NCBI RefSeq assembly: GCF_000007145.1
Contig: NC_003902.1
Span: 1 to 32,000 of the forward strand
Direction of reading: 5' to 3'
Source of the DNA: Xanthomonas campestris pv. campestris str. ATCC 33913
Lineage (GTDB): Bacteria > Pseudomonadota > Gammaproteobacteria > Xanthomonadales > Xanthomonadaceae
DNA length: 32,000 bases
Part shown: piece by piece, positions 1 to 7,297 of the stretch
Layout of the letters: every line of letters starts with the position of its first letter
Numbering within the stretch: the first letter of the stretch is position 1
The notes under the pieces: model-generated
What the model saw: the letters and a program-made list of their open reading frames with translations, nothing else
Databases searched by the model: none
What the model was told of the DNA's origin: nothing
Made by a program: the position numbers and the translations under genes

Positions 1-41
1 TTTTCTGCGCGCCGCAGCCAGCAACAGATGATCACACTTTG

Positions 42-1370
42 ATGGATGCTTGGCCCCGCTGTCTGGAACGTCTCGAAGCTGAATTCCCGCCCGAGGATGT
101 CCACACCTGGTTGAAACCCCTGCAGGCCGAAGATCGCGGCGACAGCATCGTGCTGTACGCGCCGAACGCCTTCATTGTTGAGCAGGTCCGCGAGCGATAC
201 CTGCCGCGCATCCGCGAGTTGCTGGCATATTTCGCCGGCAATGGCGAGGTGGCGCTGGCGGTCGGCTCCCGTCCGCGTGCGCCGGAGCCGCTGCCGGCAC
301 CGCAAGCCGTCGCCAGTGCGCCGGCGGCCGCGCCGATCGTGCCCTTCGCCGGCAACCTGGATTCGCATTACACCTTTGCCAACTTCGTGGAAGGCCGCAG
401 CAACCAGCTCGGTCTGGCCGCGGCGATCCAGGCCGCGCAGAAGCCGGGCGACCGTGCACACAACCCGTTACTGCTGTACGGCAGCACCGGGCTGGGCAAG
501 ACCCACCTGATGTTCGCGGCCGGCAACGCGCTGCGCCAGGCCAATCCGGCGGCCAAGGTGATGTACCTGCGCTCGGAACAGTTCTTCAGCGCGATGATCC
601 GCGCGTTGCAGGACAAGGCAATGGACCAGTTCAAGCGCCAGTTCCAGCAGATCGATGCGCTGCTGATCGACGACATCCAGTTTTTTGCCGGCAAGGACCG
701 CACGCAGGAGGAGTTTTTCCACACCTTCAACGCGCTGTTCGACGGCCGCCAGCAGATCATCCTGACCTGCGACCGCTATCCGCGCGAAGTCGAGGGCCTG
801 GAGCCGCGGCTGAAGTCGCGCCTGGCCTGGGGCCTGTCGGTGGCGATCGACCCGCCGGATTTCGAGACGCGTGCGGCGATCGTGCTGGCCAAGGCGCGCG
901 AGCGCGGCGCCGAGATTCCCGACGACGTGGCGTTTCTGATCGCCAAGAAGATGCGCTCGAACGTGCGCGACCTGGAAGGGGCGCTCAACACGTTGGTGGC
1001 CCGCGCCAACTTCACTGGCCGCTCGATCACTGTGGAGTTTGCGCAGGAGACGCTGCGTGACCTGTTGCGTGCGCAGCAGCAGGCGATCGGCATTCCCAAC
1101 ATCCAGAAGACCGTGGCCGACTACTACGGCCTGCAGATGAAGGACCTGCTTTCCAAGCGCCGCACCCGCTCATTGGCGCGCCCGCGCCAGGTGGCGATGG
1201 CGCTCGCCAAGGAGTTGACCGAGCACAGCCTGCCGGAGATTGGCGATGCGTTTGCCGGCCGCGACCACACCACCGTGCTGCACGCCTGCCGGCAGATCCG
1301 CACGCTGATGGAGGCCGACGGCAAGCTGCGCGAGGACTGGGAAAAGCTGATTCGCAAGCTCAGCGAGTGA
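42..1370 (+). CDS. dnaA: chromosomal replication initiator protein DnaA
   Basis: ORF 39..1370, where 39 is TTG and the first ATG is at 42 ([15 protein letters not shown]...). AAA+ Walker [12 protein letters not shown]-terminal DnaA-box-binding domain ([11 protein letters not shown]). Classic dnaA-dnaN-recF-gyrB synteny. Confidence 0.98.
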
Positions 1371-1439
1371 GCGTTTGGCGCCCTTCTCGCCCGTCTTGGA
1401 AAAAAGCGTGGATGAGTTGGGGCCAAATGCGGGAGAATC

Positions 1440-1448
1440 TGTGGATAA
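1440..1448 (-). promoter_or_regulatory. DnaA box (perfect TTATCCACA on minus strand)
   Basis: Plus strand reads TGTGGATAA, an exact reverse complement of the consensus. Confidence 0.8.
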
Positions 1449-1474
1449 ATGCGGCTGCAGCGTTGAGGCGAAAA

Positions 1475-1483
1475 CTATCCACA
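1475..1483 (+). promoter_or_regulatory. DnaA box (8/9, cTATCCACA)
   Basis: One mismatch to TTATCCACA. Forms an inverted pair with the box at 1440-1448 (26-nt spacer). Confidence 0.65.
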
Positions 1484-1645
1484 GGTTTTCCCACCGCTCC
1501 AGGGGCACTAGTCCATAGACTTTCAAGCTCAAAATAGTTCTTGGAAACAATACGTTAGTGTGGTTGTCCGCCAAAAACGGCCCTACCATCACCACCAAGC
1601 TTTTGATTTATTCCACATCTTTAAAGCATAGGGGCACGGAACCAC

Positions 1646-2746
1646 ATGCGTTTCACACTGCAGCGCGAAGCCTTCCTCAAGCCGTTGGCCCAGGTGGTCA
1701 ATGTCGTCGAACGGCGTCAGACATTGCCGGTACTGGCGAACTTGCTGGTGCAGGTGAACAACGGCCAGCTGTCGCTGACGGGGACCGACCTGGAAGTCGA
1801 AATGATCTCGCGCACCATGGTCGAGGACGCCCAGGACGGCGAAACCACGATCCCGGCGCGCAAGCTGTTCGACATCCTGCGGGCCCTGCCTGACGGCAGC
1901 CGCGTCACCGTCTCGCAGACCGGAGACAAGGTTACGGTGCAGGCCGGGCGCAGCCGCTTTACGCTCGCCACGCTACCGGCCAACGACTTCCCGTCGGTGG
2001 ACGAAGTCGAGGCCACCGAGCGTGTGGCGGTGCCGGAAGCCGGGCTGAAGGAGCTGATGGAGCGCACGGCGTTCGCGATGGCCCAGCAGGACGTGCGTTA
2101 TTACCTCAACGGCCTGCTGTTCGACCTGCGCGATGGCCTGCTGCGCTGCGTGGCGACCGATGGTCACCGCCTGGCGCTGTGCGAGACCGAGCTGGAAAAG
2201 TCCGGTAGCGCGAAGCGCCAGATCATCGTGCCGCGTAAGGGCGTCACCGAGCTGCTGCGCCTGCTGGAGGCGGCTGATCGCGATGTCGAGCTGGAGCTGG
2301 GCCGTAGCCATATCCGGGTCAAGCGCGGCGATGTCACCTTCACCTCGAAGCTGATCGACGGCCGTTTTCCGGATTACGAGGCGGTGATACCGATCGGCGC
2401 GGACCGTGAGGTCAAGGTGGACCGCGAGGCGCTGCGTGCGTCACTGCAGCGTGCGGCGATTCTGTCGAACGAAAAGTACCGCGGCGTTCGCGTCGAAGTA
2501 TCGCCGGGCCAGCTGAAGATCAGCGCGCACAACCCGGAGCAGGAAGAAGCGCAGGAAGAGATCGAGGCCGATACCAAGGTCGATGATCTGGCCATCGGCT
2601 TCAACGTGAACTATCTGCTGGATGCGCTCTCTGCACTGCGCGACGAGCATGTGGTGATCCAGCTGCGCGATGCCAATTCGTCGGCGCTGGTGCGTGAGGC
2701 GAGCAGCGAGAAGTCCCGCCACGTCGTGATGCCGTTGCGCCTCTGA
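1646..2746 (+). CDS. dnaN: DNA polymerase III beta sliding clamp
   Basis: 366 aa, MRFTLQREAFLKPL...VMPLRL. Typical beta-clamp N- and C-termini and the expected position after dnaA. Confidence 0.98.
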   Translation: MRFTLQREAFLKPLAQVVNVVERRQTLPVLANLLVQVNNGQLSLTGTDLEVEMISRTMVEDAQDGETTIPARKLFDILRALPDGSRVTVSQTGDKVTVQAGRSRFTLATLPANDFPSVDEVEATERVAVPEAGLKELMERTAFAMAQQDVRYYLNGLLFDLRDGLLRCVATDGHRLALCETELEKSGSAKRQIIVPRKGVTELLRLLEAADRDVELELGRSHIRVKRGDVTFTSKLIDGRFPDYEAVIPIGADREVKVDREALRASLQRAAILSNEKYRGVRVEVSPGQLKISAHNPEQEEAQEEIEADTKVDDLAIGFNVNYLLDALSALRDEHVVIQLRDANSSALVREASSEKSRHVVMPLRL

Positions 2747-2774
2747 CGCTGCGTTCCACGTGGAACACGAAGGG

Positions 2775-2798
2775 GCCCGGCTTACGCCGGGCTTTTTT
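2775..2798 (+). terminator. rho-independent terminator after dnaN
   Basis: Stem GCCCGGC (2775-2781) / GCCGGGC (2786-2792), loop TTAC, then T6 (2793-2798). Confidence 0.8.
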
Positions 2799-2829
2799 GT
2801 GGGCCAAGGAACATTGAGACAGATGGCTC

Positions 2830-3268
2830 GCTGCCATCGACGTGCCTGCCGGCGTACTCGGGGTTTCTCAAGCCAATGTGCCTTGGTTTGCGGTCTGAGA
2901 TGTCGTGAACGACCGTTGCTGCGAAGTCATGCGGATTGGCTGGGGCAGCGAGCTTCCGCGCACGCAGGATCGACTGATGACTGGTGTCCCGTGTCACGTG
3001 GCAATGGTGGGATATCGCGGGCTTGCTCTTGGCTGGCTCTGAAGACGTAAGAGCCATCACGAGCAATCAGGGAAGCGATTATCTGCTCTCTTCCAATCAT
3101 GGCTCGAAAGCACTCGTGGTCTCGTGGCTAGAACACGGCGGCTATCGGCACACGCTCTCTGCTTCGGGTCGGCCTGCTCCGTAGAAACCTGAGATCGTCA
3201 CTTGGTGAGGGAACATCATAAACACAGGGAACCAGGGTGCGAACAAGAGACTAGGTCTTCTGCAAAAG
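2830..3268 (-). pseudogene. possible decayed, inverted partial copy of the 5' third of dnaN
   Basis: One minus-strand frame, interrupted by 2 stops, gives landmarks collinear with DnaN. LQK (3265-3257) vs LQR aa5-7. RERVPIAAVF* (to 3128) vs ERRQTLPVLANLL aa22-34. AMIGR (3103-3089) vs EMISR aa52-56. LIARDGSYVFRASQ (3070-3029) vs LRALPDGSRVTVSQ aa78-91. QAR vs QAGR. LPRDTGHQSSVD (3004-2969) vs LPANDFPSVD aa110-119. Weaker matches continue in another frame to about 2830. Similarity is weak and judged by eye. Confidence 0.35.
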
Positions 3269-3327
3269 AGTTTCGTGCGATTAGAGCACGGCTTCGGAAG
3301 GTACTTTTGAGTTATGCACAACGTTCA

Positions 3328-3517
3328 AAGCTTTTAAATCTAGATAAATCTTAAAGGCTGGGTGGTGATGGTAGGGCCAGATTTCTCCGAAAAGTAGGTT
3401 AAGCATATGTTCTTAAACACTTTTGTGGCCTTGAAACCCTGTGTCTAGACCCGCTCAAACGCCCTGATTACCTGTGGATAAGCGAAACGGCCGCCATGGG
3501 CATTGAAACTGTCCACA
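3328..3517 (-). repeat. right arm of the inverted oriC-like module pair (partner 1440-1630)
   Basis: Contains perfect DnaA box TGTGGATAA (3473-3481), a 7/9 box cTgTCCACA (3509-3517) 27 nt away, the exact 18-mer GGTGGTGATGGTAGGGCC (3361-3378, reverse complement of 1579-1596) and an AT-rich tract (3328-3360). About 30-45% GC by hand count over 3301-3420. Confidence 0.7.
3473..3481 (-). promoter_or_regulatory. DnaA box (perfect) upstream of recF
   Basis: Plus strand TGTGGATAA, 152 nt upstream of the recF ATG. Confidence 0.7.
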
Positions 3518-3632
3518 ACTTGTCCCCAGTTTGTCGCCGCGTGACGGAAACGTTTGCCGCAGCATGTCCACTGCCGATCACGTATGCTCCGCCCCGTCCG
3601 ATGCCGGACTTCAAGGCCAAGCAGACCGATCG

Positions 3633-7297
<3,665 letters not shown>

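Follow-up and report, generated by a model that had tools for sequence, protein, structure and literature searches.

The chromosome of Xanthomonas campestris pv. campestris str. ATCC 33913 carries a second, mirror-image copy of its replication origin on the far side of dnaN. In the analyzed window (positions 1 to 32,000 of contig NC_003902.1, 32,000 nucleotides in all), the accepted oriC occupies the gap between dnaA and dnaN (module L, 1418-1633, plus strand), its inverted paralogue is located in the gap between dnaN and recF, upstream of recF (module R, 3326-3539, minus strand), and dnaN, the gene for the beta clamp, is bracketed by the two. We put at about 0.5 the probability that R is an auxiliary DnaA-assembly module that would cooperate with oriC. 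Judging from the literature searches, this arrangement appears to be new: a dual or bipartite-like origin, the second part of which would be a mirror-image paralogue of the first, across dnaN.

The relationship between the two modules is apparent from their alignment. Comparison of the dnaA-dnaN gap with the reverse complement of positions 3250-3633 yielded a local alignment between 1418-1627 and the reverse complement of 3330-3539 with a score of 51 (z=24), compared to 11.6 +/- 1.6, with a maximum of 22, for 500 dinucleotide-preserving shuffles. The similarity persisted under stricter scoring of L against the inverted R (z=14.5), and alignment of L and R in the direct orientation gave a background score only. 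An nhmmer profile built from 34 copies of the module (17 L and 17 R) matched L at 1419-1633 (E=5e-53) and R with E=1e-42, and detected no further copies in the 32-kb window. An earlier note on this DNA, made by reading the letters alone, had proposed an inverted alignment over about 190 nt that included two inverted pairs of DnaA boxes (separated by 26 nt on the left and 27 nt on the right), a middle stretch of about 95 nt with about 60% identity and a net indel of about 1 nt, an exact shared 18-mer, and AT-rich tracts. All these observations were borne out, with the homology being slightly longer than proposed, at approximately 215 nt. The box pairs are located where they had been placed; the middle stretch (95 nt in L and 94 nt in R, a 1-nt net indel) is 59% identical and significant on its own (z=5.5, a score reached by none of 2000 shuffles); the 18-mer at 1579-1596 is the exact reverse complement of 3361-3378; and the AT-rich tracts span 1597-1627 and 3328-3358. 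The 18-mer pair is missing from an automated listing of repeats but is seen in the sequence read-out and in both alignments.

At one end of each module, two DnaA boxes form an inverted pair. The outer box of L (1439-1448, minus strand) reads CTGTGGATAA on the plus strand, that is, a perfect TTATCCACA on the minus strand (9-mer TGTGGATAA at 1440-1448), and is followed after 26 nt by the inner box CTATCCACAG (1475-1484, plus strand; 9-mer CTATCCACA at 1475-1483). The inner box of R (3472-3481, minus strand; 9-mer TGTGGATAA at 3473-3481) also reads CTGTGGATAA on the plus strand, again a perfect TTATCCACA on the minus strand, and is separated by 27 nt from the outer box CTGTCCACA (3509-3517, plus strand). 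Of the five other aligned Xanthomonas, X. nasturtii has TTGTCCACA as its R outer box and the remaining four have TTATCCACA. Within the box pair, the 10-mers CTGTGGATAA and TTATCCACAG point toward each other, an arrangement also known for R1 and R4 of the Escherichia coli oriC. A GGGTTTC motif (1517-1527 in L and 3430-3440 in R) lies between the boxes and the AT-rich part, and there is a middle AT-rich stretch (1528-1557 in L and 3389-3418 in R). The 18-mer GGCCCTACCATCACCACC (1579-1596, plus strand; R copy at 3361-3378, minus strand) consists of a GC cluster followed by the 3-nt-periodic tract TAC CAT CAC CAC CAA, and next to it is an AT tract that is a candidate unwinding element (1597-1630 in L and 3327-3358 in R). 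An extra consensus DnaA box, TTATGCACA (3312-3320, plus strand), is located on the dnaN side of the R AT tract, 6 nt away; it is kept in all six aligned Xanthomonas, and Stenotrophomonas have no box at that position. The 18-mer, which occurs in only 25 of the 80 dnaA-dnaN gaps sampled across the order, is similar, perhaps by coincidence, to the 12-mer AAACCTACCACC, an unusual DnaA box from Thermotoga maritima, and several of its copies read CCTACCACCACC.

Both modules also contain matches to the IHF consensus WATCARNNNNTTR. The sequence AAACAATACGTTA at 1545-1557, in the middle stretch of L, deviates from the consensus by one mismatch, and most copies of L and R have a match here too. A perfect match, AATCAAAAGCTTG (1596-1608, minus strand), abuts the 18-mer of L; at this position, 15 of the 17 L copies have the perfect consensus, the Xanthomonas R copies have lost it, and several R copies of Stenotrophomonas match it perfectly or with one mismatch. 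IHF might bind at these positions, with the caveat that consensus matches are weak evidence in AT-rich DNA.

The distribution of the modules was assessed in 80 loci across the Lysobacterales that came from a scan for DnaN relatives, with further look-ups; a DnaN search aimed at Xylella and the X. translucens group gave only relatives with at least 90% identity, and these taxa fall outside this sample. According to the profile, an L-type module is present in the dnaA-dnaN gap of nearly all 80 loci, and a full-length, inverted R is present only in the window and in 16 of the 80 loci, all from Xanthomonas or Stenotrophomonas. The within-genome comparison of the left gap with the reverse complement of the right gap produced z values of 10-40 in all five Xanthomonas and all eleven Stenotrophomonas, and background values in every other locus tested. 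By look-up, R was also located in X. oryzae, X. fragariae and another three Stenotrophomonas loci, for a total of all eight group-2 Xanthomonas species (including that of the window) and all 15 Stenotrophomonas loci examined. In every carrier, R is inverted and located between dnaN and recF. Its distance from dnaN ranges over 63-763 nt and that from recF over 62-527 nt; the latter is a constant 93-99 nt in the eight Xanthomonas species and spans the entire 62-527 nt in Stenotrophomonas. Only L is present in X. albilineans, Xanthomonas sp. AmX2 and some 60 other Lysobacterales.

In a distance tree, all L copies group into a single clade with branching like that of the species, and outside this clade the R copies are grouped by lineage. 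The between-genus identity is 0.62-0.72 for L-L pairs, 0.52-0.59 for R-R pairs and 0.50-0.66 for L-R pairs; in each comparison, L-L pairs are more similar than L-R pairs, and L and R from one genome are no more alike than L and R from different genomes. Because L-L identity consistently exceeds L-R identity, the simplest reading is a single old intragenomic inverted duplication, not followed by gene conversion, that would predate the split between Stenotrophomonas and Xanthomonas; the simplest reading of the absence of R from the X. albilineans/AmX2 lineage is its later loss. The separate clades and the lack of elevated within-genome identity speak against gene conversion as the process that keeps L and R alike. 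Import of R from a distant relative is unlikely as well given that R is nearest to the L modules of its own clade (identity of 0.55-0.61 with the L copies of Stenotrophomonas and Xanthomonas, as opposed to 0.51-0.53 with outgroup L copies). However, the 27-nt box spacing of R fits most outgroup L copies and not the 26 nt of the L copies of its own clade. The copied segment corresponds almost exactly to the intergenic module, with the homology of R stopping short of the dnaN-start equivalent by about 15 nt.

Several other origins of R were considered and rejected. The idea that dnaN had been part of the duplication, with a coding fossil surviving in the spacer filler, found no support in tblastn comparisons of the filler with DnaN, DnaA and RecF, which gave nothing better than E=0.28. 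An RNA gene or leader was dismissed given the lack of Rfam matches at E<=1, and RNAalifold applied to the 34 copies recovered only the palindrome of the box pair, with a covariation term of 0.02. A mobile or foreign element was discounted as well, there being no blastn match in plasmid and phage collections and no further copy in the window. A consensus scan for sigma-70 promoters inside the modules found none.

The pattern of conservation of R is that of a constrained element. In six aligned Xanthomonas species, the conserved parts of the dnaN-recF gap are a parS-type palindrome with the dnaN terminator, R itself, and the last ~60 nt before recF. R thus stands as a conserved island in a spacer, the rest of which is at shuffle-level identity. 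In particular, the hypervariable filler between the terminator and R (2805-3300 in the window, outside the R module) is 335-680 nt long and unalignable among the six species. Because the filler is at shuffle-level identity in genomes with dnaN 86-94% identical, its turnover appears to be faster than substitutions alone would explain. Within the module, conservation is mosaic and parallels that of L from element to element: L-R identity is highest in the DnaA boxes (0.89-0.91) and the 18-mer (0.84), followed by GGGTTTC (0.73), the AT tract (0.63) and the inter-box spacer (0.31). The L outer box is 95% identical among L copies and 91% identical between L and R, and the box pair is 86-88% conserved among R copies; for the 18-mer, the corresponding identities are 91% within L, 79% within R and 84% for L versus R; and GGGTTTC is conserved at 0.76 in R and 0.74 in L. 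Altogether, 35 columns are invariant over the 34 L and R sequences.

The inter-box spacing is also under an apparent constraint. It is 26 nt in all 17 L copies and 27 nt in 16 of the 17 R copies, while the spacer sequence is just 40% identical among L copies. Because the spacing is fixed while the spacer sequence is free, this pattern is best described as a signature of protein-binding geometry. The same kind of inverted pair, with boxes 25-28 nt apart, typifies the dnaA-dnaN gap throughout the order. The 26-nt spacing is found in every L module of Xanthomonas and Stenotrophomonas and in most of those of Pseudoxanthomonas, and the 27-nt spacing in most outgroup L modules of Lysobacter, Luteimonas and Thermomonas; R may preserve the older box spacing. 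DnaA boxes have also been gained beside R: all Xanthomonas have TTATGCACA, and two Stenotrophomonas groups carry between one and three additional boxes toward recF. In 16 of 19 loci, near-consensus boxes are no fewer in the dnaN-recF gap than in the accepted origin; the number of boxes that deviate from TTWTNCACA at one position at most is 1-7 in or next to R, compared to 2-5 in the accepted origin.

Nowhere in the region is the duplex less stable than in R. When the 30-bp windows of 1300-3700 are ranked by stability, the lowest four are, starting from the least stable, those of the R AT tract, the L AT tract, the R middle stretch and the L middle stretch. Opening under superhelical stress was modeled with a simplified single-bubble version, mostly AT-driven and distinct from standard stress-induced duplex destabilization (SIDD), under which the R tract (3298-3357) is the dominant opening site of window positions 1-5000, with p=0.95 at sigma -0.055. 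In the same model, the L tract opens only when R is excluded, at sigma -0.06, and the dominant opening site of the 7-kb locus falls inside R in 16 of 16 related loci. These predictions show R as maintained in a state of very easily melted DNA, within the terms of this model.

We further compared R with published definitions of bacterial origins. According to Weigel (2025), an oriC comprises an unwinding element, a consensus box TGTGNAWAA about two helical turns away from it, and an array of boxes; transcription of the gene that flanks this element leads away from it 'without exception', and DnaA-trios are optional. R contains a candidate unwinding element (least stable window at 3327-3356, the dominant opening site in the model) and an array of DnaA boxes. 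A box close to the unwinding element is present only in Xanthomonas (TTATGCACA, 6 nt off), and the strong pair is about 115 nt off. The 18-mer holds (NAN)5 in one frame directly before the AT tract, and a 1-nt insertion in three R copies breaks this frame; in our own reconstruction, these triplets lie on the strand opposite to that of the Bacillus subtilis trios and do not fit 3'-GAT-5'. A bipartite origin is defined by two clusters of boxes that are split by a gene, at up to ~2 kb, with one unwinding element only (PMC4285127). In the window, boxes at 1440-1483 and 3312-3517 flank dnaN, and both modules, not one, carry a homologous AT tract that is predicted to open. The modules are located in the dnaA-dnaN and dnaN-recF gaps, unlike the oriCI and oriCII regions described below, which occupy the rpmH-dnaA gap and the region upstream of gidA.

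The genes around the two modules are arranged as follows. The window opens with dnaA (39-1370), followed by dnaN (1646-2746, plus strand), an open reading frame with Pfam clamp domains that encodes a protein identical to X. campestris Q8PEH4 (Q8PEH4_XANCP), recF (3633-4739, plus strand, ATG at 3633) and gyrB (4853-7297). The dnaN-recF gap is unusually long (886 nt) and contains no gene calls in four complete X. campestris genomes with the same DnaN. The parS-type palindrome GTTCCACGTGGAAC is located 7 nt after the dnaN stop (2753-2766), and there are three exact copies of it in the window, compared to 0.16 expected by chance; the other two lie inside recF (4064-4077 and 4691-4704), their codons specifying 'FHVE'. 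Papers on Pseudomonas aeruginosa and Myxococcus xanthus use this 14-mer as the core of the parS centromere. The copy after dnaN is kept in all six aligned Xanthomonas and also in those examined that lack R; more copies occur in Stenotrophomonas dnaN-recF spacers. A dnaN terminator hairpin, GCCCGGC-TTAC-GCCGGGC with a T run (2775-2798, plus strand), was read from the sequence and is kept in the six Xanthomonas and in R-less relatives. Upstream of recF, a conserved GATCACGTATGCT (3576-3588, plus strand), kept in the six Xanthomonas, holds TATGCT at 3583-3588, a possible -10 element of recF that would be independent of R. The related GGTATGCT precedes recF also in X. albilineans and Xanthomonas sp. 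AmX2, which lack R, and a (G)GTATGCT motif is found 40-50 nt before the recF start with or without R (also in loci L087, ~4170-4180, and L021, ~4305-4315). In the X. fragariae filler (locus L090, 3482-3634), a 50-residue minus-strand open reading frame was called that has no Pfam hit and is not conserved elsewhere, and is probably an annotation artefact; the small open reading frames in Stenotrophomonas spacers included nothing convincing.

Under the scenario that we favor, the whole dnaA-dnaN origin module would have been copied once, in inverted orientation, into the dnaN-recF gap in the common ancestor of Stenotrophomonas and group-2 Xanthomonas, and selection would then have kept R as a second site of DnaA assembly. 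DnaA would bind the two high-affinity boxes of R, 27 nt apart, and in some lineages the added boxes too, and R would retain the origin's own 18-mer together with the easily melted AT tract. R would act in cis with the neighboring origin, similarly to the distal half of a bipartite or dual origin, raising or buffering the local DnaA concentration by looping out dnaN, and may also open itself. The outcome would be a more robust initiation, with R not being indispensable. The homology, age, distribution, pattern of constraint and low duplex stability of R are shown by the analysis, whereas binding by DnaA and IHF, looping, unwinding and any influence on initiation are inferences. Because the position of R between dnaN and recF is so variable, a self-contained module that acts through a loop appears plausible. 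An extended form of this scenario, a mirror-symmetric double origin with DnaA on both modules, both AT tracts opening and the unwinding sites facing each other across dnaN, is unlikely.

Several observations weigh against a cooperating module. The dnaN-recF gaps of X. albilineans and AmX2 (273 and 638 nt) have neither R nor its boxes, with the same L, while keeping the parS site, the terminator and the pre-recF motif; because these relatives possess the same L without R, the module is dispensable at least in their lineages. As the between-genus identities indicate, R evolves faster than L. The rule on the direction of transcription beside the unwinding element holds for L but not for R, given that dnaN runs toward the R AT tract, and the opening predictions come from the simplified model. 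Recruitment of DnaA alone leaves the retention of the 18-mer and the AT tract unexplained. Finally, Yen et al. (2002) are said to have found that the 273-bp dnaA-dnaN gap of X. campestris pv. campestris 17 replicates autonomously on its own. The earlier note had listed a bipartite origin flanking dnaN among the possibilities. The second, mirrored oriC-like module upstream of recF that it described stands, whereas an obligatory bipartite origin is not supported because relatives with the same L lack R.

Among the alternatives, the possibility that R is a regulatory locus for DnaA, acting by titration or on the nucleotide state in the manner of datA/DARS2 or of the B. subtilis box clusters, is a doubtful one. 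In E. coli, datA and DARS2 are non-coding, non-essential clusters of boxes with IHF sites that tune initiation; both need IHF, and they have no homology to oriC, require no AT tract of the unwinding type and are far from the origin. A locus of this kind at 1.5-2.3 kb from the origin would be duplicated right after firing and could help to block re-initiation. The high-affinity boxes at a fixed geometry, the recurrence of IHF-like matches at one position in most copies, the accretion of extra boxes beside R in several lineages, and the dispensability of R in some lineages, as is usual for regulators, are all compatible with such a role. However, titration leaves unexplained the 18-mer and the unstable AT tract, which are among the best-kept parts of R and are located ~100 nt from the boxes; the IHF matches carry little weight in AT-rich DNA; and R shows no sequence similarity to datA or DARS, being a copy of oriC. 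A DnaA-dependent control region for recF-gyrB, comparable to oriCII for gidAB-parAB in P. aeruginosa, is less probable. dnaN ends in a terminator and recF accordingly needs a promoter of its own; the boxes of R face recF, at a nearly uniform distance from its start in the eight Xanthomonas species; and there is a precedent for an origin-like box cluster that is dispensable for replication and activates the adjacent operon (PMC13438810). Conversely, the broad range of R-recF distances in Stenotrophomonas does not fit a fixed operator-promoter geometry, TATGCT precedes recF also in genomes without R, the consensus scan found no promoter in R, and the 18-mer and the AT tract are at the recF-distal end of R. 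The earlier suggestion of a simple regulatory site for recF is weakened by the variable distance (62-527 nt in Stenotrophomonas) and the R-independent TATGCT.

That R is an independent second origin, which would fire alone and create two initiation sites ~2 kb apart, seems more improbable still, even though R has every sequence element of L and a more easily opened AT tract, the Xanthomonas consensus box (TGTGCATAA on the minus strand) adjoins that tract, and recF, on the far side of R, is transcribed away from it. The direction of dnaN transcription, toward the R AT tract, the absence of R from sister lineages and its faster evolution compared to L all point the other way. The faster evolution and the loss in some lineages are also what a functionless remnant of a duplication would display, with similarity due to chance, recency or gene conversion, but this reading is strongly disfavored. 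R predates the split between Xanthomonas and Stenotrophomonas, yet the 35 columns are invariant in all 34 sequences; the adjacent filler has diverged to the shuffle level; the spacing is fixed over a free spacer sequence; the separate L and R clades imply that there was no gene conversion; and DnaA boxes have been gained beside R. The description of R in the earlier note as a possible fossil of an inverted duplication with its protein-binding parts still under selection is correct with respect to the duplication and the constraint, whereas 'fossil' is too weak a term because R has the least stable DNA of the region and has gained boxes in several lineages, that is, it is not decaying.

Among known systems, the nearest precedent for R, by analogy, is oriCII of Pseudomonas. 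In Pseudomonadaceae and Halomonadaceae, the oriCI and oriCII regions similarly represent two origin-like box regions in one origin domain, conserved at the family level (PMC13438810; bioRxiv 10.1101/2025.08.05.668638), and the Pseudomonas oriCII is origin-like, replicates a plasmid, is dispensable on the chromosome and is a DnaA-dependent activator of the neighboring operon (PMC13438810). Located in different gaps, oriCI and oriCII are not described as copies of each other, in contrast to R, which is a recognizable inverted paralogue of L, 1.5-2.3 kb away across dnaN, with a putative activity. The bipartite origins of Helicobacter pylori and B. subtilis likewise consist of two box clusters with one gene between them, up to ~2 kb, and DnaA has been proposed to bridge the sub-regions by looping (PMC3479198; PMC4285127). 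The gene in between is dnaA in these origins and dnaN here, the unwinding element is confined to one half there and present in both halves here, and, unlike the case of bipartite origins, the L and R halves are mirror-oriented paralogues, the second of which is not obligatory given the R-less relatives. The distal DnaA boxes of B. subtilis incC work via a loop at a variable distance and in either orientation, raising the local DnaA concentration, and duplication of sites has been proposed in this context as a route to robustness (PMC6669920); in that system, individual boxes lie at a distance of 130-460 bp and inside a single gap, whereas R is a complete 215-nt origin module beyond a gene. The origin sequence is also present twice, by tandem duplication, in the chromosome of Mycobacterium bovis BCG Pasteur, but duplications of the BCG type are large, recent, direct, gene-containing and strain-specific (PMC4403523), as opposed to an inverted 215-nt non-coding module that is kept across two genera.

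Full-text searches, which did not cover DoriC, found no description of the R module in the literature on Xanthomonas, Stenotrophomonas or Xylella. In Xanthomonas papers, oriC is placed only between dnaA and dnaN; a paper that cites Yen et al. (2002) describes oriC boxes between dnaA and dnaN and no more. A 2025 preprint refers to P. aeruginosa as the only known bacterium with two functional origins.

One origin per bacterial chromosome is what is commonly taught, and the few known exceptions, bipartite origins divided by dnaA and the Pseudomonas oriCI/oriCII pair, are poorly understood. A mirror double-origin design, if true, has been described for no bacterium. In the present case, the second element can be shown to be a copy of the origin, and it has been kept throughout the history of both genera, among whose members are major plant pathogens and an opportunistic human pathogen, making it a clean case of origin diversification by duplication. 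The lineages without R represent natural knock-outs, and the long-standing question of what extra origin-like DnaA sites do, whether in robustness, control of timing or gene regulation, becomes directly testable in a tractable system. The annotation of origins is affected as well, given that the DnaA boxes of the dnaN-recF gap are as numerous as those of the annotated oriC and that its DNA is easier to open. In these bacteria, two origin-like modules, and not a single one, may serve to initiate or control replication.

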